Assembly (NCBI GenBank): GCA_028277625.1
Contig: JANQFW010000135.1
Span: forward strand, 9,424 to 73,423
Direction: 5' to 3'
DNA: 64,000 nt
From: Candidatus Gastranaerophilales bacterium
GTDB lineage: Bacteria > Cyanobacteriota > Vampirovibrionia > Gastranaerophilales > JANQFW01
Shown here piece by piece: positions 17,997 to 45,827 of this stretch. The position numbers were made by a program, and so were the translations under genes. Within the stretch, counting starts at the first letter, position 1. Each line of letters starts with the position of its first letter. The notes under the pieces are model-generated. The model made no database searches and was not told the origin of the DNA. It saw only the letters and a program-made list of their open reading frames with translations.

Positions 17997-20024
17997 CTAT
18001 ACCTTATCAGGAGTAGATTTTTTCTTAAAATCAGGTAGATTAAACTTAACTTGCAAGCCTGTTAAAAAACTAATACCGGGGTGCTTGTATCCTTTGTAGA
18101 CTTCGTATCTATCGTTGAGGATATTGTTAAGCCTTCCCCATAAATAAACGTGTGCATTATCTACGCTGAATAATCTGACTCTTGAGCCCAGTGCCAGCTT
18201 AAAGAATCCACGTACTCTATCACCATCATTATTATAGGCCCTGCTTGATGCGGACGAGCCGGCAACAAAGATATTATATCTTTCTTTAGGAGAATATCCA
18301 AGCTTAAAATTAAATCTATTTCTTGGAACGCCTGCAATGTCGTTATTATTTAGGCCATTATTATTTGTTAAAGTGTGGCTGGCTAAGCCGTAAATACCTG
18401 ATAAAAAGTTAACTTTTAAAGTATTTTCAAATCCTGAGGTTTGAGCTCTTGAGATATTGTTATAAGTAGTGCCGCTCCAGCTTATTAAGTCAGTAAATTT
18501 ATTATCAAAATAAGCAAATTCGTAGTTAACTTTATCGTTAAATAAGCTTTGGATAATTCCAACATCCCAGCCACTACATTTTTCCGGTCTTAAATCAGGG
18601 TTGCCGGCGGGAGTACCAAAGAAAACACCACCAAACTGAAATGGGGTTGGGTAGTTAACAGAATACCCGTATGACGATCTTAACTTTGTATAAGAATCTT
18701 CTAAAAGAGGTGTTGGTAAAACTAAAGCACCTGATACATTTGGAGTGCCGTAAGTACCCCATTGTGAGTCCTCTATACCTGTGCCAGCTTTTATTATTAA
18801 TGTATCTTTTATATTGATTTTATTATTAAAGAACACATGGCCTGTTGTGTAGCTCCTTGAAAATCTATCATTATAAGCGAATAATCCATCGCCAAAAGAA
18901 TTTTGATTGAAGTTATTGTGCTCCAATGTATAACCAAAGGAAAATGTTTCTATGTCTTTATATCTTAAGTTGTGTTGTGTTGAAGCAATAAGCCTGTCGT
19001 TTCGTGATCTATTGTTATTATTACTAAAATCTACGCCATAGCTATCTACAAAGTCCTCAAAATAATTTTCAAAACCAACATAGCCGACTTTCAAATTATA
19101 ATCATAGCTATTAAAAGGCTTATGGCTAAATGTAGTTGTATTAATTATTTGAGTATTCTGACTTCTTGCATTAGGGTCAAATACAGTTGTACCCGCAAAA
19201 TAATTTTCGCTTATGCCTACGTTCTTTTTAGCTTCTATATACCTAAAGGTATTTCTAAGTTCTACGGTGTTATCAAATAGCCTTTTGCCTAAGTTAGCAG
19301 ATACAGTAAAGTTAGAGTAATCATCTCTTCTTGATTTACTATCCGAAGTAGTTATCATTCCTCCATTTGTATCAAGTCTTGATATTCCAATGTAATAATC
19401 TGCTGAGTTATTGCCGCCAGAGAATGAAGCATGTTCTTGAAAGGTAGCATATGTTCCAATTTTTTGCTCGTAGTTAATCTTTGGACGGCCATGGCCTCTT
19501 TTAGTGGTTAAACTTATTAAGCCGCCATGAGTGCTTTCTCCATGAATGCTTCCTTGAGGACCTTTTACTATTTCAATTCTTTCCAGATCATTATTTGAAA
19601 AATGAGTTAAATCCGCATAGCCATAGCTGGGATTATCAATTTTTACACCATCAAGGGTAAGGCCAACTCTGCTCCAGCCTCTAATTCTTATTGAACTTGT
19701 CATCCCGGCAGAGCCCAGGTCTTGTGTTGTAATACCTGTATGATCATCAAGGAGTTCATTTAAAGTAACTTTTTGGTCGTTATTAGCATCTTTTAAATTT
19801 ATAATTTCTACACTGCTTGTAGATGTTTTAATATCTTGAGGCATGTTATCTACACTATAAACCTGACAATCTTGTATTTTACCAAACTCAATAAATTTAC
19901 ACTGGTGCGTATCATGTGCATGAGGTTTAATATTATCTACACCTTCAGCAAATGACTGACCTATGCTTAATATGCTAAGTGCTGCTGCTGTTATTAAAAT
20001 CTTTTTCATATTTTTATTTTCCAT
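17997..20024 (-). CDS. btuB: TonB-dependent outer-membrane receptor, cobalamin-type by context
   Basis: 675 aa. Signal peptide, plug domain (DLERIEIVKGPQGSIHGESTHGGLISLTTKRG), long beta-barrel, and a cobalamin riboswitch upstream. The start could instead be the ATG at 20009 (MKKILITAAALS...). Confidence 0.88.
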   Translation of the reverse strand: MENKNMKKILITAAALSILSIGQSFAEGVDNIKPHAHDTHQCKFIEFGKIQDCQVYSVDNMPQDIKTSTSSVEIINLKDANNDQKVTLNELLDDHTGITTQDLGSAGMTSSIRIRGWSRVGLTLDGVKIDNPSYGYADLTHFSNNDLERIEIVKGPQGSIHGESTHGGLISLTTKRGHGRPKINYEQKIGTYATFQEHASFSGGNNSADYYIGISRLDTNGGMITTSDSKSRRDDYSNFTVSANLGKRLFDNTVELRNTFRYIEAKKNVGISENYFAGTTVFDPNARSQNTQIINTTTFSHKPFNSYDYNLKVGYVGFENYFEDFVDSYGVDFSNNNNRSRNDRLIASTQHNLRYKDIETFSFGYTLEHNNFNQNSFGDGLFAYNDRFSRSYTTGHVFFNNKINIKDTLIIKAGTGIEDSQWGTYGTPNVSGALVLPTPLLEDSYTKLRSSYGYSVNYPTPFQFGGVFFGTPAGNPDLRPEKCSGWDVGIIQSLFNDKVNYEFAYFDNKFTDLISWSGTTYNNISRAQTSGFENTLKVNFLSGIYGLASHTLTNNNGLNNNDIAGVPRNRFNFKLGYSPKERYNIFVAGSSASSRAYNNDGDRVRGFFKLALGSRVRLFSVDNAHVYLWGRLNNILNDRYEVYKGYKHPGISFLTGLQVKFNLPDFKKKSTPDKV

Positions 20025-20158: not shown

Positions 20159-20279
20159 TTTTAAATTTTCAAAATTTTATACAAAATAACAAACCTCATA
20201 ATAGAAGTTTGCTGATATTCATTGCGCTATTCCAGTTTTTTCATCGTTTATCCCCTTTTCTTGTGCATCGCAAGAGTAA

Positions 20280-20375
20280 GATTGAACAGAATATTGGTGT
20301 TCTGGCTTGGATATTATCCTTACAGTTGCGGCACAGCCTCGGAGTTTCACCGATGTTTCCCAGTTATTCTATTTT
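20280..20375 (-). promoter_or_regulatory. cobalamin (B12) riboswitch aptamer
   Basis: The minus-strand RNA reads AAUAGAAUAACUGGGAAACAUCGGUGAAACUCCGAGGCUGUGCCGCAACUGUAAGGAUAAUAUCCAAGCCAGAACACCAAUAUUCUGUU. It has a 9-bp P1 (AAUAGAAUA / UAUUCUGUU), the conserved GGGAA, GGUGAAA.UCC and CUGUGCCGCAACUGUAA cores, and a B12-box-like AGCCAGAACACC. It lies upstream of btuB-btuCDF. Confidence 0.88.
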
Positions 20376-20555
20376 AATATTACTTTTATAAGTCTTAAGA
20401 TTATGATATATATTACATGAAAGAATTTCAATGCTTTTTTATAAAAATTTATTTTTGTTTGTAAAATGAAAAGTAACTAATTTAAATTGCGAAATGTTAA
20501 AAATTAGCCATCTAAAGACCAATAGGTTAGAATTTTATATTGAGAGTTAGTATAT

Positions 20556-35019: not shown

Positions 35020-35286
35020 TTATTCTTCATCCGCTGGGGTTCCGCATTCTGGGCAAAAATATGATCCGTCATCCTGAAACCAGTCATCATATTTCATTTG
35101 ATAGCCGCAGTCTTCACATTCTGGGGGAAGAGAGTCTGGTAGATCAAAATCTTTCTTTTTGATTAGAACTTCATAGCCTTCAATAGAAGTTGCTTGAATA
35201 TACGGTAGTTTTTCTTTTTTTAAATCTTTAACCATTTCTTTAAACTGCGGTGTTAACTTTTTAACTAGCTCTTGCTGTTTAGCCAT
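35020..35286 (-). CDS. hypothetical protein with C-terminal zinc ribbon
   Basis: 88 aa. CEDCGYQ...FCPECG (CxxC-x17-CxxC). Confidence 0.55.
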   Translation of the reverse strand: MAKQQELVKKLTPQFKEMVKDLKKEKLPYIQATSIEGYEVLIKKKDFDLPDSLPPECEDCGYQMKYDDWFQDDGSYFCPECGTPADEE

Positions 35287-35417: not shown

Positions 35418-36752
35418 TTAATCATCAAACTTCAGGCAACATTTCTTATATTTTTTACCACTGCCACAGTAACAAGGCTCATTTCTACCAGGCCTCTTCT
35501 TTGATTCATCCTCGTTTACATCTTCAATGCATTCTTCAATTTGGCTTTTATAATTTTCTATTTCTTCATCTAACTGAGCTATTTTCTCGATAGATTCTTT
35601 AGCTAGCCTAATTAATTCGTCAGCTGTTTTTGAAGTCATATTAAGCGTATAAAATGAAAATTGCTTCACTTCTGAGTGATATTCAGGCTTCAAGGAGTCA
35701 AGTATCTCTAGAAGACTCGAGTTCTTTATATCAGGAAATTCTTCAAATTCATAATCTTCTGAAACTGTGTAAACTATATGTCTTGTAGTAGTGAGAAATT
35801 TTTCTTTGTCGTCCGATTTTTCATAAAGCTTTAAAATCGATTCCACTGAATATTCAACACGTTCTTCAAAGAAGTATTCAGATAAAATATCTTTCTCTAT
35901 TTCTGTATATACCCAGCTAGAAGTCTTTCGTTCATAGATATTTTTCAGTACATTATAGTGTTTTGCAACATAAAGCCCTTTATCTTTTAATACAAAAACT
36001 AGTGTATGATCCGACTCTTTTGCTAAAGCTGCTTCTTCACTTGGTTGTTCTTGAAGAATCTTTATTGCTTCTTCTTTTTTTTCAGCATAGTTACATTTTA
36101 TAAAATCAACAAAAACATCTACTGCTTCTGAAGCAATATCTTCATCCAATAACACTTCGTCATTGCCAAATATATCTATAAACTCAGAATGTATTTTATC
36201 TAAAAGGTTCTTAACTTCTTCTTCTTTTTTAGGATTATCCTTATACATCGCTTCTGAGTGAGTTGATAATAATTCTTTTACAAATAAAAGGGCTTCTCCC
36301 CTATCTTCAAGCAGATCAACAATGTCTGGGATATAGTAATTATCTTCAAATTTGATTAACTTAGTCATAAAATACTTATTTAAAGAGGGATTTAAGGCTT
36401 TTGGATTAATCAAAATTGCTCTATACTCTTTTTCATTTACAAAATTATAAATGCACAAATCATTTTCATTACTCAAAATCTCGAAAGATGAGCCTGCAGC
36501 ACCCTTAGCTGCTTGAATAAATTCTTTTTCTCTTTGGTCAAAAACATCACTTTCTAAACAAATATCAAGAGGATACTTATAAATTTCTGGAATAAAATTA
36601 TTTAAAAACTCTACTTTCCAATAATTTTTTAACTGCTTGTCTCTTGGCAAGTGTTTGTTTATTTCCTTTTTAAAATTATTTTTTATGGCGAAATCATATA
36701 ATTTATTGAGTGCGTTTATGACAAACTCTTTACTATCTGCGCTGTTATTCAT
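35418..36752 (-). CDS. SEC-C motif protein of unknown function
   Basis: 444 aa, acidic. C-terminal RNEPCYCGSGKKYKKCC is a canonical SEC-C metal-binding motif. Confidence 0.7.
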   Translation of the reverse strand: MNNSADSKEFVINALNKLYDFAIKNNFKKEINKHLPRDKQLKNYWKVEFLNNFIPEIYKYPLDICLESDVFDQREKEFIQAAKGAAGSSFEILSNENDLCIYNFVNEKEYRAILINPKALNPSLNKYFMTKLIKFEDNYYIPDIVDLLEDRGEALLFVKELLSTHSEAMYKDNPKKEEEVKNLLDKIHSEFIDIFGNDEVLLDEDIASEAVDVFVDFIKCNYAEKKEEAIKILQEQPSEEAALAKESDHTLVFVLKDKGLYVAKHYNVLKNIYERKTSSWVYTEIEKDILSEYFFEERVEYSVESILKLYEKSDDKEKFLTTTRHIVYTVSEDYEFEEFPDIKNSSLLEILDSLKPEYHSEVKQFSFYTLNMTSKTADELIRLAKESIEKIAQLDEEIENYKSQIEECIEDVNEDESKKRPGRNEPCYCGSGKKYKKCCLKFDD

Positions 36753-36942: not shown

Positions 36943-37656
36943 ATGTTGAATATTTCTAAAGTAAAGCGAAGTGTTAGCCGGTTTCTTAGTAATCGTATTG
37001 TTGAGGGATTTCTTTTAACTCTTATATTATTGAATATCCTGGCTTTTATTTTGGAATCGGATAAATATCTATTTTCGGTTGCCAAAGGCTACTTTTTTTA
37101 CTTTGAAATATTTTCTATATCTGTGTTTACCATTGAGTATCTATTAAGATTATTTACTATAAGAAAGATAGCAAGCTTTTTTAGGCCTCTTTTGCTACTG
37201 GATTTAATAGTAATTTTACCGTTTTATCTGTCTTTTATGACTACAGACTTAAGGTTTTTAAGAGCCTTTAGGATTGTTCGGGTTTTTAGAATCCTAAAAG
37301 TAGCAAGATACGTTACTTCAGTAAGAAAATTATATAAAATATTTGCTTCTAAAAAAGAAGAGTTGCTTATTACGTGTTTATTTTTGATGATATCAGTGAT
37401 TGTGGCGTCTTCGCTGATGTATCTAGTTGAAGGGAATGAGCAAGAAGCTTTTTCAAGCATTCCAAATGCTATGTGGTGGTGCGTTGTAACATTTACTACC
37501 GTGGGCTATGGTGATACTTATCCTGTTACGCCTTTAGGTAAAATACTGGCAGCAATTGTTGCAATTCTTGGTATTGCATTGTACGGCATATTAACAAGCA
37601 TACTTGGCTCAGCGTTTTTAGACGAAATTGAAAAAAACAAGCCAAAAAAGCAATAA
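36943..37656 (+). CDS. voltage-gated-type potassium channel (6TM)
   Basis: 237 aa. S4-like RFLRAFRIVRVFRILKVARY. Selectivity filter TTVGYGD. Confidence 0.88.
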   Translation: MLNISKVKRSVSRFLSNRIVEGFLLTLILLNILAFILESDKYLFSVAKGYFFYFEIFSISVFTIEYLLRLFTIRKIASFFRPLLLLDLIVILPFYLSFMTTDLRFLRAFRIVRVFRILKVARYVTSVRKLYKIFASKKEELLITCLFLMISVIVASSLMYLVEGNEQEAFSSIPNAMWWCVVTFTTVGYGDTYPVTPLGKILAAIVAILGIALYGILTSILGSAFLDEIEKNKPKKQ

Positions 37657-37676: not shown

Positions 37677-39203
37677 TTAGTGCCAGTTTTTCCAGCCATC
37701 TAAATAATAATCTAGCACTATAGGATTATTTAATGAGCTTGGTTTAATATCTTTGACTTTTGAGTCTTTTGGAAAAACAAATAATGTTTTTACAATCTCA
37801 TTTGAAAGATATTTTGTTTCTTTGCTTAGATTGATATTATTTAAATCAGGCTTCCAGTTTAATGCAAGGTTAAAGCCCCAGTCTCCAAAAGATGGAATGT
37901 AAACATGATAAGGATAAATATTCTTAAATCCACTGCTTTGTATTGTTTGATTTATACACCAAAAAGCTTTTGGCGCAAAAAATGGGCTTGTTGACTGGGT
38001 TACAAAGATGCCTGTTTTACTTAATTTTTTGTTTACAAGCTTATAAAACTCTTTACTGTAGATTCTCGCTATGGAAGTATTATTAGGATCAGGCAAATCA
38101 GCTATTATTACATCAAATAAATCATTATTGCTCTCTAAAAACTTAAATGCGTCTGTGTTTATAATTTTTACTTTTGGATTGTTAAAGCTGTTATTATTTA
38201 ACTTTTTTAGTAGTTCGTTGTTTAAAGCTAGTTTTGTTATAAAAGGATCCAGATCAACTAAAACTATTTCTTTAATTTCAGGATATTTCAATAATTCTCT
38301 CGCTACTAGTCCGTCACCACCACCTAGGACAAGAACTTTTTCTTTGTGCGGTGCTATATTTAAAGGTATGTGCACAAGCGGCTCGTGGTATCTATGCTCA
38401 TCTACAGAGGAAAACTGTAAGTTGCCATCTAAAAAAAGCCTTAGATCGTTTTTGTATTTAGTTAAAATAACTTTTTGGTATTTACTTTGCTTAGAAATTA
38501 TTATTCTATCGGCATATATTGAACTTTCCCAGCCGAAAATAAGTTTTTGAGAGAAAATTATGCCTATTAACAAGACTGCTGCCATTGAGGCTGTTTTGTA
38601 TGAGAGTTTTTTGGTTGTTTTGTTTTCCAGTTTATCTTTGAACCACCAGAGATTAAGACCTGCTATAACTAAGTTTATTAAACCTGTAATTAACGATGTA
38701 TTAAATATACCAAAAAAAGGCAATAAAAAAAAAGGGAAAAGTAGTGTTGCAATTAAGGCTCCAAAATAGTCAACTGATAAAACGTTTGATATATTTAGTT
38801 GCAGAGGATAGTGTTTCTCTAGTATTCGGGTTAAAAGTGGGATTTCTAGCCCTATGAGAATGCCTATTGCAAAGACCAGGGTTATCATTATCGGGTAGTA
38901 AATATCTGTGAAGGCAAAGGCGGCATATAAAATCGGTACACATAGGCCGCCTATTAGCCCAAGCCAAATTTCTACGATAATAAAATTTCTTATTAGGTTC
39001 TTTTTTATTAGCCTTGATAGGTACGTACCAAAGCCCATTGCTGTCATTGCAAGGCCTATGGTTAAAGAAAACTGCATTACACTGTCGCCTAAAAAGTATG
39101 AAGATATGCTACCTATAAGGAGTTCGTATATTATGGTGCATAGCCCTACTACCATTACTGATATTAAAAGGATTAATATTTCAATATTTTTGTTTTTGAT
39201 CAT
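37677..39203 (-). CDS. membrane-anchored spermidine-synthase-like polyamine aminopropyltransferase
   Basis: 508 aa. The N-terminal 200 aa or so are multi-TM. The C-terminal domain carries VLVLGGGDGLVAREL and IIADLPDPNN, the SAM/dcSAM-binding motifs of SpeE-family enzymes. Confidence 0.85.
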   Translation of the reverse strand: MIKNKNIEILILLISVMVVGLCTIIYELLIGSISSYFLGDSVMQFSLTIGLAMTAMGFGTYLSRLIKKNLIRNFIIVEIWLGLIGGLCVPILYAAFAFTDIYYPIMITLVFAIGILIGLEIPLLTRILEKHYPLQLNISNVLSVDYFGALIATLLFPFFLLPFFGIFNTSLITGLINLVIAGLNLWWFKDKLENKTTKKLSYKTASMAAVLLIGIIFSQKLIFGWESSIYADRIIISKQSKYQKVILTKYKNDLRLFLDGNLQFSSVDEHRYHEPLVHIPLNIAPHKEKVLVLGGGDGLVARELLKYPEIKEIVLVDLDPFITKLALNNELLKKLNNNSFNNPKVKIINTDAFKFLESNNDLFDVIIADLPDPNNTSIARIYSKEFYKLVNKKLSKTGIFVTQSTSPFFAPKAFWCINQTIQSSGFKNIYPYHVYIPSFGDWGFNLALNWKPDLNNINLSKETKYLSNEIVKTLFVFPKDSKVKDIKPSSLNNPIVLDYYLDGWKNWH

Positions 39204-39457
39204 TTATTTATACGCCCATCTCTGTCTCTGAATTACTTACCACTATGTATCCGGCCACCGCCTCGGTTGAGGCCCCTTACATCCCGTTCATGATAAAAGT
39301 CACGTGCACCAAAGTAAAAATCTGTTTGCAATTATTAATAAAATCACACCAGCAATAATAGAAAAAATACTAAGTATAATATAAGGAACATTACTAACCT
39401 GCTGCATAGATATGGAATAAGTAATTTCTCCTACTTTCCTAGGAACTGTGATTTTTT

Positions 39458-39754
39458 TTACTTGCCGCCATGATATCCACCGCTCCTTACCCTGCGGTTT
39501 CCATTCACACTGCCTGTTCTGTTGCTTCTTGGATAGTCTCTGTTATAACCTCTATCATAATCATCATAATACCTTCTACCTCCGAATGGTGAACCACCCC
39601 AGAAAAAGAAAGTACTATGGCTGCCATGTGATCTATGATAATGTCCATGACTATCGTAGTATCCTCTTCTGGGGCTACAAGAGCCCATTATCAATAGTAA
39701 AAAGATAACTACGACAAGCACGGTTAATATTATCTTTTTTTTGTTATCTTCCAT
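39458..39754 (-). CDS. small lipoprotein with Gly/Arg/Tyr/His-rich low-complexity tail
   Basis: 98 aa. Signal peptide with a lipobox-like LLIMGSC, then GYYDSHGHYHRSHGSHS..GGRRYYDDYDRGYNRDY. Preferred over the antisense ORF 39448..39708 because of its operon orientation and signal peptide. Confidence 0.6.
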   Translation of the reverse strand: MEDNKKKIILTVLVVVIFLLLIMGSCSPRRGYYDSHGHYHRSHGSHSTFFFWGGSPFGGRRYYDDYDRGYNRDYPRSNRTGSVNGNRRVRSGGYHGGK

Positions 39755-39759
39755 TAGCT

Positions 39760-40611
39760 TTACCCTATAACGCTAAAGTCAACTATAAACAAGTAAACAA
39801 TCGCAATTGAAATTACTGTTATAGCTTCTAAAACACCTACTGTAACATTACCTTGCTTTAACGCATCGTTTAATTTGACTTTAGGTATTAGTATTTTATC
39901 AAATAGAACCCTTACAGTTGGTAACAGAATAATTCCGGCTAAAACCTCGATACCAAAGTTACTTAAGTCAGCAATCCAGTTTGAAAAATCACCGGAAACG
40001 CCTTTTAATAATATTATACTCAACGCAATTAGAGTTCCGCCAAAAGCAATACCAACAGCCACATTGTCTTTTTCTATTTCATCATGAATGCAATATGGTA
40101 AAAGAAGATTGTAAATTTTTGAAAAAAGTATCAAAGCAAGCTGGCCTAGTGCAAAAAATGCCATTGCTGAAATAATGCCGCCACCTTGGCCTGAAATAGA
40201 ACCACCGATAATTAAACCGGATGCTAAAAATGAACCAAATACAACAGCTGCAGTTCCTACGTTTTTATCTTCTACAATTTCTTTTGTTATACAGAATTTA
40301 GGCAGTATAAGCTTGTCATTAATGAATTTGGAAATATTAAGAAGTACAATACCCAGAACTGAATAATACCCAAAGTCCAAAAGATCTTTTACAAAATCAC
40401 CTGCTGAACCTATACTGGCACCTACAATAATAGCAACAATTGCTATAAAATATCCGGCTACACTCACCCCAACGGCTAAGTTATTATTTTTAATCTGTTC
40501 TCTGGGATTATACGGAACGATTAAATAAAAAATTACTTGTGCCAATAAAATTATTATAAAAGAAAGTACAAGAAAAATTAAACTTGAACTAATTATTCCT
40601 ATGTTTTCCAT
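39760..40611 (-). CDS. tandem DUF350 (YjfL-like) integral membrane protein
   Basis: 283 aa, about 8 TM. Four repeats of the DUF350 half-motif (IKNNNLAVGVSVAG, VEDKNVGTAAVVFG, IEKDNVAVGIAFGG, LKQGNVTVGVLEA), comparable to E. coli YjfL NNNTAASLAFSG. Confidence 0.75.
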   Translation of the reverse strand: MENIGIISSSLIFLVLSFIIILLAQVIFYLIVPYNPREQIKNNNLAVGVSVAGYFIAIVAIIVGASIGSAGDFVKDLLDFGYYSVLGIVLLNISKFINDKLILPKFCITKEIVEDKNVGTAAVVFGSFLASGLIIGGSISGQGGGIISAMAFFALGQLALILFSKIYNLLLPYCIHDEIEKDNVAVGIAFGGTLIALSIILLKGVSGDFSNWIADLSNFGIEVLAGIILLPTVRVLFDKILIPKVKLNDALKQGNVTVGVLEAITVISIAIVYLFIVDFSVIG

Positions 40612-40694
40612 TTTTTATCCCTTTCTACTTCTCTCATCAATATCTATTTACATAGAGGGATTAATGGTAAATTCCCCTATATAATAGTTATTTA

Positions 40695-41321
40695 TCAGCT
40701 GTCTAATGAATATATCGTGATTTTGGATGGGCTGATATATTGTCCCCAGCTTACCTCTATTGAGCCATCCCAGTCTTCAACGCTTATAAAATACTCTTCT
40801 TCTTCATCTTCGAATTCCCAGTAATAGAATTCTTCAGCTCTTGACTCATCACAATTTCTTACATATACGGCATCATCAGAATCATCGTAGTTGTATCTCT
40901 GATTATTATAGATAACAGAACCTTCTTCTTCATTATCTATTCTTCTTAGATCGAATTTTGTAATGCCTAAGTCTGAAAGTTTTAGCTTTTCGAGGCTCAA
41001 AGCCAGTTCTAGCTCGTCATCTTGTTCGATTGTAAGCCATACTTTTTTGTCACCGGCATCACATTCAAGCTCGTACCATTCATAGTTACCTTGATAGTAT
41101 TTATGTTTAGCTAGAACCTTGAGATCTAAGTCCTGCATATCAGGCCCTACGTGATTAATTTTAATCACAGCACCCGGCATTATTTTTATTATCTCTTGCT
41201 CTTGATTGCTATATGCTGACATATCAAGCTCTTGTCTTTGCCTTTGCTCTGAATCCTTGGGCTTCCAGATGAAGTATAATATAACGCCGAGGATTATTAT
41301 TAAAATTAAGGCTGAAATCAT
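40695..41321 (-). CDS. DUF4178-like protein with N-terminal TM anchor
   Basis: 208 aa. TM helix, then YQGNYEWYELECDAGDKKVWLTIEQDDE... and an acidic C-terminus (YYWEFEDEEEEYFISVEDWDG). The pattern matches my recollection of DUF4178. Confidence 0.6.
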   Translation of the reverse strand: MISALILIIILGVILYFIWKPKDSEQRQRQELDMSAYSNQEQEIIKIMPGAVIKINHVGPDMQDLDLKVLAKHKYYQGNYEWYELECDAGDKKVWLTIEQDDELELALSLEKLKLSDLGITKFDLRRIDNEEEGSVIYNNQRYNYDDSDDAVYVRNCDESRAEEFYYWEFEDEEEEYFISVEDWDGSIEVSWGQYISPSKITIYSLDS

Positions 41322-41342
41322 TTTTTATAAAACTCCTTAGTT

Positions 41343-42053
41343 TTATTGAGTCATACCTAGTTTCTTTTTCATTTCTTCTAAAGAAGCAGATGTACTAGGA
41401 TGAGCCCCTGATGAAATTGCTTTATCTATTTCGTCATCAATACTGGTATCTATGCTTCCAACATCTTCATAGGCTTGCGATAAAGATTCATCTTCGTCAA
41501 CTCTTTCTTTCATTCGTTCTAGCATGCTGATTGTTCCGTTTGAGTCAATTTTTGCAAGGTGCTTGTTTATCTTTTTAGAAGCTTTTGCGGTTTTAGCTCT
41601 TGCTTTAAGTATTGTCATTTCACCTTCCCAAGAATTTATTTGGGCTTTTAGCTTTTTAATTTTAGATTCAAGATTAGAAATTAACTGTTCTTGATTTTGA
41701 ATATCTGTTGCTAATCTTGTTGCCTGTTGCACAGCTTCTTCTTTTTTATTTAATGCTTCTGTTGCAAGCCTTTCTGCTTCTGCCAAGTCAAGATTACCTT
41801 GTTGTGCTTTTTGGAGCAAAAGCATAGCTTTTTTTTCATAATCAGCTGCTTGATCTTTTGATTCTTTTAATCTTTTTTGATTGCCGATTAATGTTGCTTT
41901 AACTTCAGCAAGGGCTTGTAAGCTTGAACTTAAATCACTTTTTAAATCTCTTATGCCTTGTTCTGCCATTTTGATAGGATCCTGAAATTTATCAATAGCC
42001 GCATTAGTTTCTGCTTGTGCGGTTTTAAATAATCTTTTTAAGGAATCAAACAT
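41343..42053 (-). CDS. pspA: PspA/IM30 family protein
   Basis: 236 aa, all coiled-coil. The N-terminus MFDSLKRLFKTAQAETNAAIDKFQDPIKMAEQGIRDLKSDL parallels E. coli PspA [37 protein letters not shown]. Confidence 0.88.
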   Translation of the reverse strand: MFDSLKRLFKTAQAETNAAIDKFQDPIKMAEQGIRDLKSDLSSSLQALAEVKATLIGNQKRLKESKDQAADYEKKAMLLLQKAQQGNLDLAEAERLATEALNKKEEAVQQATRLATDIQNQEQLISNLESKIKKLKAQINSWEGEMTILKARAKTAKASKKINKHLAKIDSNGTISMLERMKERVDEDESLSQAYEDVGSIDTSIDDEIDKAISSGAHPSTSASLEEMKKKLGMTQ

Positions 42054-42094
42054 ATTATTTTACCTCTCTTTAAGTTGCTATTTTTATTATATAT

Positions 42095-42490
42095 TTATTT
42101 CGCAAATGTTAAAAATTCAGAAGAAAATTCAGCCATTGCTATGGTTAATGAGTCAATTGAACCCTCAAGCTCATTTAGATCTAAATTTTCTAATCTTAAA
42201 GTATCTCTAAATATTATTTTATCACCTTCTTCATCAATAACAAAAGCACCATGAACCAGGTCACGATTCATTTGTAATAATCTGAGAAGAACTTTAGGAT
42301 CATTTTTATCTTTTAATTTAAAAATAAATTGCTCTATAACCAAAATAGAATCTTCGCAATCAATAATAAGATTTTTAATACCCTTTGATTCATCATCAAT
42401 TATAAAAAGGCTTTCTTCAGTGTCTTTTTCTGTGATTTCATAACCTAATTCATAAATGTAGTTTTCTACCATATTGCAGTATTCTGTCAT
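42095..42490 (-). CDS. YbjN/YjfI-like (T3SS-chaperone-like fold) small acidic protein
   Basis: 131 aa. The pattern of alternating beta and helix segments (LFIIDD...LIIDCEDSILVIEQFIF...LLRLLQMNRDLVHGAFVIDEEGDKIIFRDTL) and its position in front of pspA suggest the family. The assignment is tentative. Confidence 0.45.
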   Translation of the reverse strand: MTEYCNMVENYIYELGYEITEKDTEESLFIIDDESKGIKNLIIDCEDSILVIEQFIFKLKDKNDPKVLLRLLQMNRDLVHGAFVIDEEGDKIIFRDTLRLENLDLNELEGSIDSLTIAMAEFSSEFLTFAK

Positions 42491-42631
42491 TTTTCCCTCC
42501 CATAAATATAATTTTAATTTCTAAAAAATTTTATCATATATTATTATACTACTACTTTGTAAATTATGTTTAATAATATATAAAAAGGCTATTAAACACT
42601 TGCCGTACTATTTCTGTCTATTATTAATTTA

Positions 42632-45600
42632 TTAGAATAAAGATAATTGCTGGCTTTTATCTTTATTTTGTGGTTGCTTTTTCTCGAATTTACTGTGTTT
42701 TATCAGCTCATCTTCGATATACTTTAAAAACGGTGACTCGCTCATCTCTTGGACAGAGCCACGCCACATACGCTTTTGTGATCGTGTTAAAAACAAATGA
42801 TTCTGAGCTCTGGTCATGCCAACGTAAAATAAGCGTTTTTCTTCTTCTGTATTATCATCACCCATGCCCCAGCGCAAAGGAACTATGCCATCTTCAAGCC
42901 CTACAATAAATACAACTTTAAACTCCAAGCCTTTTGATGCATGAAGCGTCATAAGAGATATTCTATCAGCTCTTTCATCAAGAGTGTCAAGTTCTGTTAA
43001 CAGGCTTATATTATTTATAAATTGCTCTTTATCATTATTTTGTTGGGCTAAAGAAATTAAATATTGTAAAATATGCTCTTCTCGTTCTTCTTCCATGTTT
43101 GAACATATATTTTTTACTTGAATATCTAAAGATTCAGATGAGTTATCCTCTTGTAATTCTTTAATTAGTTGTTTTACCCAATTTTTATCGCAAATAAGAT
43201 CATTAGAATATTTAACATAAGGCATGCCTGAGCGTTTAAATGCTTCATGCAAAGCATCAGCCTGAGATGAAGTACGATATAAAATAGCAAAATCACAGAA
43301 AGATAGATCTTCTCCATCTCCAGTTGAACGATTGCTATCAATAGAAAAGAAGCTGTGCCCGCCTATTAGATTTTCTATTGTTTTTACTGTGTATTCAGCT
43401 TCAGACTTTTCTGTAGGAGTGCTATGGATAGTTATCTTATCGTAACTATCTTGGTTTATAGCAATAATATCATCTTTATCTATCAATTGGCTTGATGCCT
43501 CAACAATTATATTGCTGGAGCGATAGTTTCGGTTAAGATTTATTATCTCTGCTTGAGGGTAATCATTTTTAAAGTTTTGGAAAAAAGTAATATCAGCCCC
43601 TCTGAAACCATAAATTGCTTGATTTGGATCACCTATTGCACATAAGTTGCCGTTTTGTGGTATCAGCATTTTAATAAGCTTATATTGCTGTGCGTCTATA
43701 TCTTGGTATTCATCAATAGATATATATTTAAATTCTTGTTGATACTGATAAAACAGATCATGATCATTTGTGAATAAATTAATGGTAAGAGATATTAAAT
43801 CATCAAAATCTACCATATTATTTTCTTTTAGTTTATTTTGATAGATAATTAGCAATTCTTGCAGGTCTTCATCACTAGTATTTTGGGTTCTTTTAGCTTT
43901 TGATATTTGATTTAATAATTTATTTGCCTTATTTTCTGATATATCTTTAACATCCATTAATAAAGCTATTTGCTCTTGTTTATTAACAATTTTAAAATCT
44001 TCTTTTAAGCCTGCTTTATTAATATTTTCCTTAAGAATAGAAAGACAAAGTGAATGAAACGTATGAATCTTTATATCTTTAAAACTTTCAGGCAAAAGAG
44101 CTTTTAGCCTATCCTTCATTTCCTTGGCAGCTTTATGAGTAAAAGTAATTGCCAGGCAGTTGTTTGCAGGAATATTTTGCTCCTCTATCATATAAGCTAT
44201 ACGATGCGTAAGCACACGAGTTTTACCGGAACCGGGACCTGCAACGATCAAAAACGTACCGTCAATATTTTTTACGGCTTCTTGTTGGTCTTTATCAAGC
44301 CTTGCCGCGATAGAGGCATCATCTACTATAGGCTCAACTCTTGTTTTTAAATGATTATTTAGTTTTTTTTTAGGAATATCTGTTTTTGTTGTTGATTCTG
44401 TTTTAGGTTTAGTTTGTTTTTTTCTTCTTGGCTTATATTTTTTAACATCAAATAAGCTGTTTTGAATTTTATTATCTAACTCACCTTCTTCAAAGACTTT
44501 TATAACACCGTATTCTCCATCATAGCCAGCATTTCTTATTACATTTCCTTCTCTTAGCTTTGATATAGCTTCTGCGAGTATAGGTGAGTCTGCTTTTGAC
44601 AATTCATCTATTGGAACATCTTGTAGTATAGATAGCTCTGGACCTAGTTTTTGTATTAAAGTTTCATAAGCATTGGTAACAGTTTTACTATTAACTCCTA
44701 CTTGATATATTTCGGAAAGTATTTCTTGCAAAGGTATTAAACTACGCACCTGACCTGCGGTAGCCGGCAGTTGAAACTCACCTTCTTTACGATCTGCCAA
44801 TGCGTTAACCCTATGCATTACGCCTACAGTAACAGGTTTATTACAAACAGGACAAATGCCTTTGTGCTTTACAGTTTCCTCAGGTTCCATACAGATATTG
44901 CAATTTCTATGACCATCCATATGATATTTGCCTTCTTCGGGGAAAAACTCAACTGTTCCAACATAGCCATTGCCTGTTTGCAGGGCATTTTTAACAGAAT
45001 AATAATCAAGTTCTGTATCAAACATTGTAGCTTCTCTACCCAACTTAGATGGAGAATGAGCATCCGAGTTTGAAACTAATCTATACCTGTCAAGGTTTGA
45101 AACTCGCCAGTTCATTGGAGGATCAGAAGATAAACCTGTTTCTGCAGCGAAAACATGTTCTGCAAGGTCACCGTAACATTCATCAATAGTGTCAAATCCT
45201 GACTTGGAACCCATCACCGAAAACCATGGGGTCCATATATGCGCAGGAATGATATAGGCATCAGGGCTTGACTCTAAAACTATTTCTAGTAAATTTCTTG
45301 AGTCTAAACCTAATATTGGCCGTCCGTCAGAGACAATGTTTCCTATTGAGGCAAGCTTGGCATTTATTTTTTCTGCGGCTTCAATATCCGGGGCATATAC
45401 CAAATGATGAACTTTTCTTGTTTTATCACCTTTTTTATAGATGGTGGATATTTCCACGCATAGCATAAATCTTAAGGGGCTATCGTTTATTAAAAATTCT
45501 TTTTTTAAATCATCTCTAAGTTCATAAGCACCGGGGGCAACCGGAACCAGTTTTTCTTTAATTTCTGCAATCCACGCTGGATGAGTAAAATCTCCTGTTG

Positions 45601-45715
45601 CCAGCATATTAATGCCTTTTTTCTGAGCCCATAGGGCAAGTTGTTCCAAGTTTGTGCTTTTACTTGTTGCTCTTGAGTACTTTGAATGAACGTGTAAGTC
45701 TGCATAAAAAAACAT
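42632..45715 (-). CDS. fusion of an endonuclease-Q-like PHP domain (with zinc knuckle) and a UvrD/PcrA-type SF1 helicase
   Basis: The ORF track starts at 45739. I place the start at the ATG at 45715 (MFFYADLHVHSKYSRATS) because AAGGGG lies 7 nt upstream. N-terminal PHP motifs DLHVHS, GDFTHP and NSDAHS, plus CNIC-x14-CPVC. From about residue 500: helicase motif I AGPGSGKT, DEYQD, GDPNQAIYGFRGA, and a C-terminal VGMTRA. Confidence 0.85.
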   Translation of the reverse strand: MFFYADLHVHSKYSRATSKSTNLEQLALWAQKKGINMLATGDFTHPAWIAEIKEKLVPVAPGAYELRDDLKKEFLINDSPLRFMLCVEISTIYKKGDKTRKVHHLVYAPDIEAAEKINAKLASIGNIVSDGRPILGLDSRNLLEIVLESSPDAYIIPAHIWTPWFSVMGSKSGFDTIDECYGDLAEHVFAAETGLSSDPPMNWRVSNLDRYRLVSNSDAHSPSKLGREATMFDTELDYYSVKNALQTGNGYVGTVEFFPEEGKYHMDGHRNCNICMEPEETVKHKGICPVCNKPVTVGVMHRVNALADRKEGEFQLPATAGQVRSLIPLQEILSEIYQVGVNSKTVTNAYETLIQKLGPELSILQDVPIDELSKADSPILAEAISKLREGNVIRNAGYDGEYGVIKVFEEGELDNKIQNSLFDVKKYKPRRKKQTKPKTESTTKTDIPKKKLNNHLKTRVEPIVDDASIAARLDKDQQEAVKNIDGTFLIVAGPGSGKTRVLTHRIAYMIEEQNIPANNCLAITFTHKAAKEMKDRLKALLPESFKDIKIHTFHSLCLSILKENINKAGLKEDFKIVNKQEQIALLMDVKDISENKANKLLNQISKAKRTQNTSDEDLQELLIIYQNKLKENNMVDFDDLISLTINLFTNDHDLFYQYQQEFKYISIDEYQDIDAQQYKLIKMLIPQNGNLCAIGDPNQAIYGFRGADITFFQNFKNDYPQAEIINLNRNYRSSNIIVEASSQLIDKDDIIAINQDSYDKITIHSTPTEKSEAEYTVKTIENLIGGHSFFSIDSNRSTGDGEDLSFCDFAILYRTSSQADALHEAFKRSGMPYVKYSNDLICDKNWVKQLIKELQEDNSSESLDIQVKNICSNMEEEREEHILQYLISLAQQNNDKEQFINNISLLTELDTLDERADRISLMTLHASKGLEFKVVFIVGLEDGIVPLRWGMGDDNTEEEKRLFYVGMTRAQNHLFLTRSQKRMWRGSVQEMSESPFLKYIEDELIKHSKFEKKQPQNKDKSQQLSLF

Positions 45716-45827
45716 ATTAATACCCCTTATTTTTGCCATCTGTGTATTAATTTAATTCAAAAATAGCATTTAAACAAGGGTTATAGTAATCGCACTTCTT
45801 AGATTACCACTATTAAGACTAATACAG

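Follow-up and report, generated by a model that had tools for sequence, protein, structure and literature searches.

The window, a 64-kb stretch of DNA, contained six minus-strand open reading frames exactly where a preliminary description of the sequence had placed them, together with two pseudogene remnants and a convergent potassium channel gene (Table 1). Profile searches against Pfam and NCBIfam upheld the families proposed in that description for five of the six genes: the calls of PspA/IM30, a TM-anchored DUF4178 protein, a DUF350 protein (two domains, 8 TM), and a multi-TM domain fused to a SpeE-type aminopropyltransferase were all borne out, and the first gene was confirmed as YbjN-like. 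The sixth gene, small1, matched no family in Pfam or NCBIfam. Compared with the nearest relative (locus L007), each of the six genes had a dN/dS of 0.03–0.06; the value was 0.034 for the low-complexity 98-aa ORF small1 and 0.028 for the CesT/Tir-like gene. The TM segment of the DUF4178 protein begins at about residue 6, with a mean K+R count of 0.15 before it and 2.3 after it; a cytoplasmic location is predicted for the beta-rich domain.

Table 1. Features at the operon locus (positions are those of the window).
Feature	Positions	Strand	Evidence
Kv-like 6-TM potassium channel, 237 aa	36943..37656	+	Pfam Ion_trans 1.3e-27
speE: half-MFS-like 6-TM bundle plus 7th TM helix (residues 1-229) fused to dcSAM-type aminopropyltransferase domain (~230-508)	37677..39203	-	NF002956, Spermine_synth
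small2 pseudogene remnant (C-terminal tail, ..DFYHERDVRGLNRGGGRIHSGK*)	39234..39320	-	frames read; comparison with L007
X200 pseudogene remnant (C-terminal TM2 part of bitopic beta-protein)	39321..39444	-	blastn vs L007
small1, 98 aa, N-terminal TM or lipobox-like anchor (..LIMGSC..)	39458..39754	-	orthologues in L007, L008
Tandem DUF350 (YjfL-family) integral membrane protein, 283 aa, ~8 TM	39760..40611	-	Pfam DUF350 3.8e-55, two domains
DUF4178 protein, N-terminal TM anchor, 208 aa	40695..41321	-	Pfam DUF4178 2.5e-18
PspA/IM30 (ESCRT-III-like) membrane-remodelling protein, 236 aa	41343..42053	-	Pfam PspA_IM30 7.7e-42, exceeds cut-off
CesT/Tir-superfamily (YbjN-like) small acidic cytoplasmic protein, 131 aa	42095..42490	-	CesT_Tir_1 PF22550 3.8e-48; YbjN 3.7e-10

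Relatives numbered 438 in species-representative genomes, and the loci of the best 80 of these were analysed. Among the taxa spanned by the best 80 were Melainabacteria, Nitrospirota, Nitrospinota, Bdellovibrionales, and SAR324, as well as Desulfobacterota, Bacteroidota, Proteobacteria, Spirochaetia, and Myxococcota. The gene set is kept together and syntenic in dozens of genomes, and the synteny comparison revealed strong co-conservation over at least eight phyla. Membership was counted in the 57 loci whose sequence extended 4.5 kb or more upstream of speE: PspA was present in 52, DUF4178 in 52, DUF350 in 54, X200 in 56, and the small protein in 54, and the canonical gene order was kept in 46. 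The CesT/Tir-like protein, which forms a dyad with PspA, was found in 24 of the 57; in many other related loci, its position is held by a J-domain protein. Consensus scans of the operon for promoters and terminators yielded no more than chance, so co-transcription is inferred from spacing and synteny only.

Popp et al. (2024, mSystems) have already described an operon of CesT/Tir-PspA, DUF4178, DUF350, a lipoprotein, and a TM-fused spermine synthase, along with its E. coli-type counterpart, a cluster that carries an ATP-grasp ligase. Their text agrees with the statement in the preliminary description that mycobacterial speE-like membrane genes lie beside DUF350 and DUF4178 genes. They had also remarked on the link between PspA and a polyamine enzyme, which had been presented as unexplained. 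The preliminary description was supported in part: most of its gene calls stood, whereas a novel PspA–polyamine link and full collinearity with yjfIJKLMC did not. The operon type is not new, and the window very probably carries a Melainabacteria (Gastranaerophilales-like) copy of the published class, with X200 and the canonical small protein deleted. The class comprises a CesT/Tir-like chaperone, PspA, a TM-anchored DUF4178 protein, a DUF350 protein, X200, a small tail protein, and a TM-fused aminopropyltransferase; the only small-protein gene left in the window operon is the extra paralogue small1.

In agreement with the preliminary description, neither tblastn nor a motif search detected AdoMetDC in the 64-kb window. 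In 11 of the 57 relatives, other Gastranaerophilales included, AdoMetDC is located within the locus, mostly directly after speE.

Deletion of two genes upstream of speE

The canonical operon carries two near-universal genes directly before speE, encoding the bitopic beta-protein X200 and then a small tail protein (small2). Both are described here for the first time as members of the canonical set, and both are lost in the window, whose operon is a decayed version without them. Four of the spacers between the six genes are as short as initially reported (41, 21, 83, and 5 nt); the fifth, ahead of speE, measures 254 nt and is what remains of X200 and small2 after two deletions, one of 423 bp and one of 173 bp, by which the window differs from L007 and L008. 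By blastn, window positions 39444–39321 matched L007 8597–8720 at 92.7% and represent what is left of X200; the rest of the gene, L007 8174–8596, is missing from the window as the 423-bp deletion. Read from its start codon, the X200 remnant reaches a stop after 10 codons. The 173-bp deletion (L007 8721–8893) has its junction at window positions 39321/39320. Small2 is intact in L007 (8763–8981, 72 aa); its remnant in the window has neither a start codon nor a TM segment, and its reading frame differs from that of the X200 remnant. The window speE is under purifying selection although X200 and the canonical small gene are gone; either small1 substitutes for both or the enzyme needs neither.

Gly-Lys and Gly-Gly termini of the small proteins

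The fifth gene had been described as encoding a lipoprotein with a Gly/Arg/Tyr/His tail. A small anchored protein with such a tail, ending in ..SGGYHGGK, is indeed encoded; its family is unnamed, and lipidation is not uniform within it. The defining feature of this family is the invariant C-terminal Gly-Lys rather than lipidation, and small1 is a lineage-specific extra paralogue in it. The last residue was lysine and the penultimate one glycine in all 79 distinct tails (79/79 for each), with zero indels within the last ~22 positions. An unbiased search of 1.84 billion proteins yielded the same terminus in 123 of 128 library-wide representatives, and in three distant family members, speE was directly next in each. 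The arrangement of the two genes is tight: at 71 of 77 loci, the small ORF stops 0–59 nt ahead of the codon aligned to SpeE residue 9, and in called genes, its overlap with the speE start is 11 nt. In natural X200-small fusions, the small-protein tail is on the side of the X200 ectodomain.

The preliminary description gave the E. coli order yjfI-J-K-L-M-C correctly; of the collinearity it drew from this, homology was retained at the PspA and DUF350 positions. The window PspA is weakly similar to YjfJ (blastp 5e-4), and the DUF350 protein is similar to YjfL (blastp 8e-5). YjfK, in contrast, is DUF2491 where the window has DUF4178, and YjfM is DUF1190 where the window has small1, a protein without a named family. 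The first gene had been compared with YjfI, which is DUF2170, a family different from the PF22550/YbjN of the window protein, although both belong to the CesT/Tir superfamily (Popp et al., 2024). YjfC had been called glutathionylspermidine-synthase-like, to which its current annotation as a peptide–spermidine ligase has to be added (Pederick et al., 2023); YjfC and YgiC both have peptide–spermidine ligase activity. The ORF (lipoprotein) directly upstream of a GSP_synth-type ligase ended in GG at 58 of 75 metagenome loci, and in E. coli, YjfM ends in ..HWGG and YgiB in ..SMGG. The Gly-Lys ends and the Gly-Gly ends before GSP_synth-type ligases are both new observations.

The membrane-fused aminopropyltransferase and its putative acceptor

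The speE product matched the NCBIfam model NF002956/PRK03612 over its full length (626 bits, cut-off 472) and Pfam Spermine_synth at 3.8e-44. The catalytic motifs are present on alignment (Q243, Y272-H273-E274, GGGDG 294–298, D317/D319, D351, and D369-L-P-D372-P), and all residues of the dcSAM site and the amine site are retained. The full-length AF2 model had a pLDDT of 89.8 and a pTM of only 0.59. Top Foldseek matches of the enzyme were 1uir/3anx, 7xif, and 6bq2; the nearest solved structures are thermospermine synthase and triamine/agmatine aminopropyltransferases, with which the 'DLxDP' motif is shared. Modelled alone (pLDDT 90.3), the TM domain resembles one half of an MFS transporter; transporters of this class made up nearly all of the top 50 Foldseek matches. 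The seventh helix (194–216) was confidently predicted in the models. Mean K+R counts were 2.3 at the N-terminus, 2.3, 2.6, and 4.7 in loops 2–3, 4–5, and 6–7, and 0.0 in loops 1–2, 3–4, and 5–6. The positive-inside rule, the orientation of the MFS half, and the odd TM-helix count together predict an outward-facing catalytic domain, on the side of the membrane where the small-protein tail would also lie. The half-MFS-like domain and this predicted outward orientation are likewise new, and the enzyme probably pairs as a dimer.

We suggest that the operon encodes two modules. The first, located in the membrane and on its cytoplasmic side, would sense or repair membrane damage. Its components would be PspA/IM30, which stabilises membranes in an ESCRT-III-like manner, the CesT-like partner of PspA, the DUF4178 protein with its TM anchor, and the DUF350 protein with its 8 TM. 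This module would be coupled to a second one of the small tail protein and the half-MFS-fused, dcSAM-dependent aminopropyltransferase. Taken as a whole, operon identity and two-module mechanism together, this explanation has about an even chance of being correct. We lean slightly towards an enzyme that works at the membrane surface, aminopropylating an acceptor there, over one that supplies the cytoplasm with bulk spermidine. The leading candidate acceptor, proposed tentatively from the conserved tails, is the invariant lysine at the C-terminus of the small protein from the gene directly upstream, through its epsilon-amine; the invariant Gly-Lys end of the enzyme's partner makes this idea testable. 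For aminopropylation of other substrates, Popp et al. (2024) cite Li et al. (2019). If the lysine is the acceptor, the product would be a membrane-anchored protein bearing a spermidine-like cationic end. Spermidine ligated to the C-terminal Gly-Gly in E. coli-type clusters would give a comparable product, although there the two partners are in different compartments, with a cytoplasmic ligase and a GG protein predicted to be an exported lipoprotein. Since dcSAM is synthesised in the cytoplasm, a catalytic domain outside the cell would require its export, for which we know of no precedent and for which the half-MFS domain is a purely speculative candidate.

Rather less probable, but still to be taken seriously, is an ordinary membrane-tethered spermidine/polyamine synthase that uses dcSAM to aminopropylate free diamines or triamines. 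Its half-MFS domain would export the product or import the substrate, the free polyamine would stabilise or shield the membrane with PspA, and the small protein and X200 would be scaffolds or regulators. The equivalog model gives the full-length family the name 'polyamine aminopropyltransferase', the Foldseek search groups the domain with characterised polyamine synthases, and AdoMetDC adjoins speE in some relatives. The catalytic and diamine-binding residues are all kept, including both acidic residues for free-diamine binding, so an ordinary diamine may still be the substrate. In some Bacteroidota loci (L064, L070, and L084), the TM-fused enzyme has no small protein in its vicinity; in L064 (Saprospiraceae), it lies with AdoMetDC beside a GSP_synth ligase, which would need free polyamine there. 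Popp et al. (2024) suggest that the system monitors polyamine concentration. However, a tethered synthase explains neither the invariant Gly-Lys, the fixed register, and the close linkage of the small gene to speE in almost all loci nor the predicted outward-facing catalytic domain. TM-fusion enzymes also reportedly do not rescue an E. coli speE mutant, and spermidine is said to be absent in species carrying such fusions.

We give little credence to the terminal lysine being something other than a substrate, namely a pseudo-substrate plug, an activating subunit, or a covalent or non-covalent cell-wall anchor. The invariant lysine and fixed register would suit such roles, and the tight, often overlapping gene arrangement suggests coupled translation and therefore roughly equal protein amounts, as for subunits. 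The anchor variant resembles Braun's lipoprotein, Lpp, whose C-terminal lysine is the attachment site to peptidoglycan, but it fails to explain the constant aminopropyltransferase partner, and the Gly-Gly termini beside carboxylate-amine ligases favour a substrate over a plug. Similarly improbable is a membrane lipid or envelope amine as the acceptor (a phosphatidylethanolamine head group, an aminolipid, or a peptidoglycan amine) of a charge-modifying enzyme: the EptA/MprF-like layout of a TM domain with a predicted outward-facing catalytic domain, the operon's coupling to the membrane-stress protein PspA, and the bulkier amines than putrescine taken by the nearest solved relatives would fit, but no lipid-binding feature was identified in the enzyme, its TM domain is like a transporter half and unlike a lipid-modifying enzyme, and the Gly-Lys terminus is left without explanation.

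The potassium channel gene in the window is separated from speE by a gap of 20 nt. Potassium channels of three different architectures adjoin the operon in 14 of the 80 related loci, in other phyla and mostly on the same strand, and the channel is a probable accessory member of the operon neighbourhood.

Genes of the operon and their conservation in related loci

The operon consists of six minus-strand open reading frames, all located exactly where the preliminary description had placed them (see the table below). The families proposed there were recovered by Pfam and NCBIfam for five of the six genes. The exception was the 98-aa ORF small1, which matched no family in either collection; X200 and the small Gly-Lys protein of the related loci had no Pfam family as well. 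All six ORFs, including small1, are real genes: their dN/dS values against the nearest relative were 0.03–0.06, indicating strong purifying selection. The CesT-like and PspA genes form an adjacent dyad on the same strand with 41 nt between them. The PspA protein matched Pfam PspA_IM30 along residues 5–231 with 143.8 bits (cut-off 33.9) and scored under the NCBIfam equivalog cut-offs for PspA and LiaH proper; therefore, we regard it as a member of the PspA/IM30 family orthologous to neither. A core of this family is common to the classical Psp (PspF-PspABC) and Lia/Vipp1 systems. In contrast to them, the window contains no PspF, PspB, PspC, LiaI, or LiaF, and the partners of PspA are a CesT-like protein, DUF4178 and DUF350 proteins, and an aminopropyltransferase.

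Scans for consensus promoters and terminators revealed 34 and 5 sites, respectively, compared to 40.6 and 4.4 expected from shuffles, which is not above chance; co-transcription is thus argued for by the short spacers and by synteny. No Rfam family reached its gathering score within or before the operon, which rules out a riboswitch or other known RNA there, and no tRNA genes were found in the same region.

Features of the operon, its surroundings in the window, and related loci (L numbers)
Feature	Position	Strand	Similarity or content
CesT-like protein	42490-42095	-	Pfam CesT_Tir_1 PF22550 3.8e-48, also YbjN
PspA	42053-41343	-	Pfam PspA_IM30 7.7e-42
DUF4178 protein	41321-40695	-	N-terminal TM; Pfam DUF4178 2.5e-18
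DUF350 protein	40611-39760	-	Pfam DUF350 3.8e-55, two domains
small1, 98 aa	39754-39458	-	no Pfam or NCBIfam family matched
Spacer before speE, 254 nt	39457-39204		remnant of X200 and small2
TM-SpeE (speE)	39203-37677	-	Spermine_synth 3.8e-44; full-length NF002956/PRK03612 'polyamine aminopropyltransferase' 626 bits
Kv-like K+ channel	36943-37656	+	
Site of missing peptidase gene	42491-42631		
1035-aa protein	42632-45739	-	UvrD/REP helicase 2.6e-76; N-terminal part, weak sub-threshold PHP_C 0.0045, PHP 0.06
444-aa acidic protein	35418-36752	-	terminal SEC-C metal-binding motif 3.4e-08
88-aa protein	35020-35286		zinc ribbon
AdoCbl (cobalamin) riboswitch	20248-20386	-	54.3 bits, gathering score 50
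675-aa ORF	17997-20024		
J-domain protein	L001 3369-3719; L003 4071-4421		
X200-small fusion (SAR324)	L069 8171-8998		
Hybrid cluster (Saprospiraceae MAG)	L064 6227-10533		AdoMet_dc, GSP_synth 2.3e-93
M48-family peptidase	L007 4247-5047		
K+ channels	L055 5835-6611; L024 4677-5435; L015 10488-11915; L060 4242-5279; L031 3249-4292; L083 1002-2054		

An alignment of the enzyme was used to scan species-representative genomes for relatives. This yielded 438 relatives, of which the best 80 loci were analysed; among the candidates scored, more than 6,500 were related to the enzyme at E <= 1e-10. The top two belonged to Candidatus Gastranaerophilales MAGs, with enzymes 93% identical to that of the window, which accordingly derives from a related cyanobacterium of the non-photosynthetic Melainabacteria. 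The remaining 78 of the best 80 loci were from Nitrospirota, Nitrospinota, Bdellovibrionales, SAR324, Desulfobacterota, Bacteroidota, several proteobacterial classes, Spirochaetia, and Myxococcota. The operon class is therefore widespread, these 80 loci alone covering about ten phyla.

According to the tagging of ORFs with HMMs made from the window proteins and their relatives, the canonical layout is [J-domain protein]-[CesT-like]-PspA-DUF4178-DUF350-X200-small-TM-SpeE-[AdoMetDC]. X200 is a bitopic protein of ~200 aa with a conserved beta-rich ectodomain between two TM segments; it was also compared with DUF4178, and this relationship was rejected (hhalign probability 1.7%). The 57 loci whose upstream sequence spans 4.5 kb or more contained PspA in 52 cases, DUF4178 in 52, DUF350 in 54, X200 in 56, and the small gene in 54; CesT (24), the J-domain protein (28), and AdoMetDC (11) were less regular. 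The genes taken as one set in the preliminary description do stay together, since the full order PspA-DUF4178-DUF350-X200-small-SpeE was found in 46/57 loci. The gene of the J-domain protein (~116 aa) often immediately precedes that of CesT or PspA and, in many Gastranaerophilales, stands in place of the CesT-like gene; the window has no J-domain gene. In Chlamydomonas chloroplasts, a J-domain co-chaperone remodels Vipp1/IM30 oligomers together with Hsp70.

The window carries a decayed copy of this layout. Its two closest relatives have the order DUF350-small1 (98 aa)-X200-small2 (72 aa)-SpeE, where small2 is the canonical small tail protein and small1 a lineage-specific paralogue. Compared to them, the window shows two clean deletions. 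The first, of 423 bp, removes codons 10–151 of X200; the second, of 173 bp, extends from the end of X200 through the spacer between the two genes into small2, whose first half is lost. What appears as a spacer before speE still includes the second TM segment of X200 and an out-of-frame small2 tail ending in RGLNRGGGRIHSGK before the stop codon. Only small1 is left, and it has kept its GGK end. Judging by these alignments, the apparent deletions would be either a real loss or an assembly error.

Relation to published PspA operons and to the E. coli yjf cluster

The preliminary description presented the link between IM30 proteins and polyamine enzymes as unexplained. As a comparative-genomic observation it is not new: the operon is the second major group of CesT/Tir-PspA neighbourhoods of Popp et al. 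(2024; mSystems 9:e00847-23; PMC11237479), in which the CesT/Tir-PspA dyad is accompanied by a spermine-synthase domain fused to a 7-TM domain, a YjfL/DUF350 protein with eight TM segments, DUF4178, and a previously undescribed lipoprotein; Shewanella oneidensis SO_3765/SO_3766 with their neighbours are the archetype. These families recur in the window, which has a CesT/Tir-like protein with PspA, DUF4178 and YjfL/DUF350 proteins, a low-complexity protein that may be a lipoprotein, and a Spermine_synth domain fused to TM segments. It differs in gene order, which is CesT, PspA, DUF4178, DUF350, small, SpeE in the window vs. lipoprotein, DUF350, SpeE, CesT-DUF2170, PspA, DUF4178, RHH in Shewanella. 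Further differences are the type of CesT-like protein (PF22550/YbjN vs. DUF2170), the deletion of X200 and of the canonical small gene, and the ribbon-helix-helix (RHH) regulator, which Shewanella has and the window lacks. This terminal regulator is found "in some cases" (Popp et al., 2024) and is thus optional; in the window, no same-strand ORF of at least 60 aa was found between speE and the convergent K+ channel gene. We conclude firmly that the window operon belongs to the published class, represents a new lineage in it, differs in gene order, and has partly decayed. The operon itself is unsurprising to a specialist, and the earlier interpretation was borne out in part and largely anticipated by the literature; in the literature searched, we found no functional study of this class. 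Neither the main text of Popp et al. (2024) nor the term matches in one of its supplements mention a Gly-Lys terminus, a half-MFS fold, or an outward-facing enzyme, all considered below. For the aminopropylation of non-polyamine substrates, the same authors refer to Li et al. (2019).

The E. coli gene order yjfI-J-K-L-M-C (b4181–b4186) is as given in the preliminary description, and its proposed collinearity with the window stood in part. The order of roles is alike, namely a CesT-superfamily protein, a PspA-family protein, a soluble beta-protein, DUF350, a tail (lipo)protein, and a polyamine enzyme, and the PspA and DUF350 pairs are similar by blastp. The families of the other four E. coli proteins, DUF2170 (YjfI), DUF2491 (YjfK), DUF1190 (YjfM), and GSP_synth (YjfC), each matched by its own family only, were not detected in the window proteins. 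DUF4178 was rejected as a counterpart of YjfK, with no similarity by blastp or hmmscan at E <= 5. YjfL has one DUF350 domain, and the window protein has two. DUF2170 has been placed within the CesT/Tir superfamily (Popp et al., 2024).

The final enzymes differ: the E. coli one is a cytoplasmic ATP-grasp peptide–spermidine ligase, and that of the window an aminopropyltransferase. YjfC and its paralogue YgiC, encoded in the paralogous dyad ygiB-ygiC, are annotated as peptide–spermidine ligases, and papers citing Pederick et al. (2023) describe the physiological peptide as unknown. In both systems (yjfMC/ygiBC and the window type), the gene immediately before that of the enzyme encodes the tail protein, whose terminus is conserved: Gly-Gly in E. 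coli (YjfM ends in ARGHWGG, YgiB in SSRSMGG) and Gly-Lys in the window type. Scanning metagenomes with an alignment of GSP_synth yielded 80 loci, 75 of them with a same-strand upstream ORF, the longest of which was taken. It ended in Gly-Gly at 58/75 loci and in Gly-Ser, Ser-Gly, or Gly-Ala at six more. The tails resembled KKSGFFGG..SSRSSFGG before the stop, and a lipobox-like motif was present in 43 of the 54 complete GG-ending ORFs. What was conserved in this sample was the lipoprotein-ligase pair, and PspA was not encoded in its vicinity. E. coli yjfIJKL behaves as a separate co-regulated unit, up-regulated in heat-evolved strains, which fits two modules, one of PspA and one of tail protein plus enzyme.

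The small tails did not match the DUF1190 tails at E <= 0.1. A hybrid cluster from a Saprospiraceae MAG (L064) contains genes of AdoMet_dc, a 137-aa C-terminally anchored protein, the GSP_synth ligase, and a lipoprotein ending in TRSFGG, which matched DUF1190 only at E = 1.7. The AdoMet_dc/GSP_synth/lipoprotein set is divergent to the adjoining TM-fused aminopropyltransferase gene, so that both polyamine enzymes are found in one neighbourhood.

The enzyme, its small partner protein, and candidate acceptors

The SpeE assignment of the catalytic domain held on alignment, where all catalytic and dcSAM residues were present: Q243, Y272-H273-E274, GGGDG (294–298), D317/D319, D351, and D369-L-P-D372-P. 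The dcSAM-binding and amine-deprotonation residues were invariant in 30 relatives and aligned with those of 7xif, 6bq2, and 1iy9. By its motifs and predicted fold, TM-SpeE should be a dcSAM-dependent aminopropyltransferase. Its Spermine_synth domain occupies residues 269–451, and seven helices lie within residues 2–216. The full-length AlphaFold (AF2) model was confident (pLDDT 89.8), with seven long helices ahead of the catalytic domain. Foldseek matched it to 1uir/3anx, 7xif, 6bq2, and 1jq3 with E ~1e-16, target-normalised TM-scores of 0.75–0.80, and rmsd of ~2 Å. The nearest solved relatives by sequence and fold were the triamine/agmatine aminopropyltransferases of P. calidifontis and T. 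thermophilus and plant thermospermine synthase, which have roomier acceptor sites and share the DLxDP motif with the window enzyme. AdoMetDC was missing from the window, as had been noted earlier: neither tblastn with the AdoMetDC of a relative nor a six-frame motif search found it.

The TM domain modelled alone gave pLDDT 90.3 and pTM 0.86. Nearly all of its best 50 Foldseek PDB matches were MFS transporters, aligned to one six-helix half with weak E values (0.03–0.3) and query-normalised TM-scores of up to 0.60, and the enzyme scored 57.6 bits with NCBIfam NF037959 "fused MFS/spermidine synthase" (cut-off 40). Membrane (MFS)-SpdSyn fusion proteins are said to have been linked to AdoMetDC and DUF350 by Li, Kurihara, Kim, Liang, and Michael in 2019, reportedly with no acceptor named. 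The window enzyme, of the PRK03612 subfamily to which the assayed proteins may or may not belong, likewise joins an apparently MFS-like N-terminal domain to a spermidine-synthase-like one. Clustering with DUF350 is also alike; AdoMetDC accompanies the relatives of the window but not the window itself.

Mean numbers of Lys plus Arg over the enzyme alignment were 2.3 at the N-terminus, 2.3, 2.6, and 4.7 in loops 2-3, 4-5, and 6-7, and 0.0 in loops 1-2, 3-4, and 5-6. This matches the orientation of an MFS N-half, in which both termini are cytoplasmic, and the seventh helix would therefore put the catalytic domain on the outer face. The DUF4178 protein has the opposite charge pattern, with a very short outside N-terminus and a predicted cytoplasmic domain. 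The charge bias of the small protein is weak; in natural X200-small fusions, its tail and the X200 ectodomain are predicted to lie on one side, following a strongly basic N-terminus in the cytoplasm. From these patterns and models we infer that the outer face would hold the enzyme domain together with the tail and the ectodomain of X200, and the inner side CesT, PspA, and DUF4178.

The X200-small fusions were found at a SAR324 locus and in 13 library representatives. Fusion proteins of 243–282 aa, all Gly-Lys-ended, are L069, P0136, P0140, P0141, P0165, P0169, P0191, P0197, P0200, P0240, P0255, and P0260. They may correspond to "LipoSIG+Ctha_1186+Low-comp", the Shewanella lipoprotein architecture of a Ctha_1186 domain with a low-complexity tail (Popp et al., 2024).

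The small protein is closely tied to the enzyme. With the distance anchored on the alignment to SpeE residue 9, its gene stops 0–59 nt before the codon aligned with that residue in 71/77 loci, the window being an extreme outlier with 278 nt; among called genes, its stop overlaps the speE start by 11 nt. All 79 distinct tails ended in Lys preceded by Gly. Further conserved positions were -6, -13, -16, -19, and -21 (G, G, S, R, and S, respectively), and the last ~22 residues were without indels. Conservation of Gly-Lys persisted at loci where the small and speE genes do not overlap. When 1.84 billion cluster representatives were searched exhaustively with an HMM, 128 family members were found, 123 of them ending in Gly-Lys; one of the other five ends in GIK, and four look frameshifted or truncated. 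A word-indexed homologue search with the small-protein alignment returned 14 proteins. In the three distant members that we looked up, the TM-fused enzyme directly followed. The family has no Pfam model, and its sole name in any source is "hypothetical protein". A Cys residue close to the TM end occurred in 52 of 80 members and was absent from those of Nitrospirota; the corresponding region of small1, LLIMGSC, is only lipobox-like compared to the canonical [LVI][ASTVI][GAS]C.

In our preferred view, a membrane-maintenance module built around PspA would be coupled to an enzyme which would aminopropylate an acceptor at the membrane surface. Among candidate acceptors, the most specific is the terminal lysine of the small protein, which we rate as possible rather than probable. 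The lysine side chain is, like putrescine, a primary amine on a four-carbon chain. Lysine side chains are extended by polyamine units in hypusine on eIF5A and in diatom silaffins. The likeness, a lysine epsilon-amine with a polyamine-type extension, is an analogy only: hypusine is made by deoxyhypusine synthase from spermidine, whereas a SpeE-fold enzyme with dcSAM is proposed here.

On a wider reading, which we consider doubtful, two convergent routes in bacteria would put a polyamine-like group on the C-terminus of dedicated membrane-anchored tail proteins. In the first, an outward-facing half-MFS-fused aminopropyltransferase would transfer aminopropyl from dcSAM to the epsilon-amine of the C-terminal Gly-Lys, the dcSAM being exported by dimerised half-MFS domains. 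As the solved SpeE enzymes form oligomers, we speculate that a transporter-like unit could arise from the pairing of two half-MFS domains. In the second, the ATP-grasp peptide–spermidine ligase of ygiBC/yjfMC-type dyads would amidate the near-invariant C-terminal Gly-Gly with spermidine; the ligase amidates C-terminal carboxylates of peptides and sits beside a protein with a conserved Gly-Gly end, as in glutathione, and the parallel chemistry matches. Both routes would give a protein with a spermidine-like cation at the membrane surface, possibly acting with PspA and DUF350 in envelope maintenance.

The main objections to the terminal lysine and the two routes are that an outward-facing enzyme needs dcSAM outside the cell, that diamine-binding residues are kept, that some Bacteroidota copies lack the small protein, that the E. 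coli ligase is cytoplasmic while its lipoprotein is predicted to be exported and thus to reach another compartment, and that speE of the window is still under selection after the loss of the canonical small gene, though small1 keeps GGK. The chief rival, an ordinary membrane-tethered polyamine synthase, has to be set against the same data. The kept diamine-binding residues are consistent with it, and it leaves the 79 Gly-Lys tails next to the enzyme without a part in the reaction; we regard it as possible rather than probable. A membrane lipid as the acceptor, or a role of the terminal lysine other than as a substrate, are both improbable explanations.

If the enzyme is an ordinary spermidine synthase, the result amounts to routine annotation of an operon type already published. 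If the two-route reading is true, this would be the first bacterial protein aminopropylation (to our knowledge, there is no known case) and would supply the physiological substrates still lacking for TM-fused SpdSyn proteins, YgiC, and YjfC. An outward topology would imply dcSAM export and polyamine chemistry outside the cytoplasm. The Gly-Lys and Gly-Gly termini turn two substrate questions of the literature, on TM-fused SpdSyn-like enzymes and on the YgiC/YjfC peptide, into simple mass-spectrometry tests in cultured organisms.

Neighbouring genes

Popp et al. (2024) mention a K+ channel for the ATP-grasp group only. A Kv-like K+ channel gene is convergent with speE of the window, with a 20-nt gap, and K+ channels adjoin the operon in 14 of the 80 related loci; these are from other phyla, the channel gene usually shares the strand of the operon, and three architectures occur (6TM, 2TM+RCK, and 6TM+RCK). 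Polyamines are classical K+ channel blockers. Directly upstream of the operon, on the same strand, is the gene of the 1035-aa helicase, probably a separate unit (141-nt gap); it adjoins the operon in the nearest relative, L007, too. There, an M48-family peptidase gene lies between the helicase and CesT-like genes; it is missing from the window, where ~980 bp are absent. Beyond the channel gene are the genes of the acidic SEC-C protein and then of the zinc-ribbon protein, and farther away an AdoCbl riboswitch precedes a 675-aa ORF.
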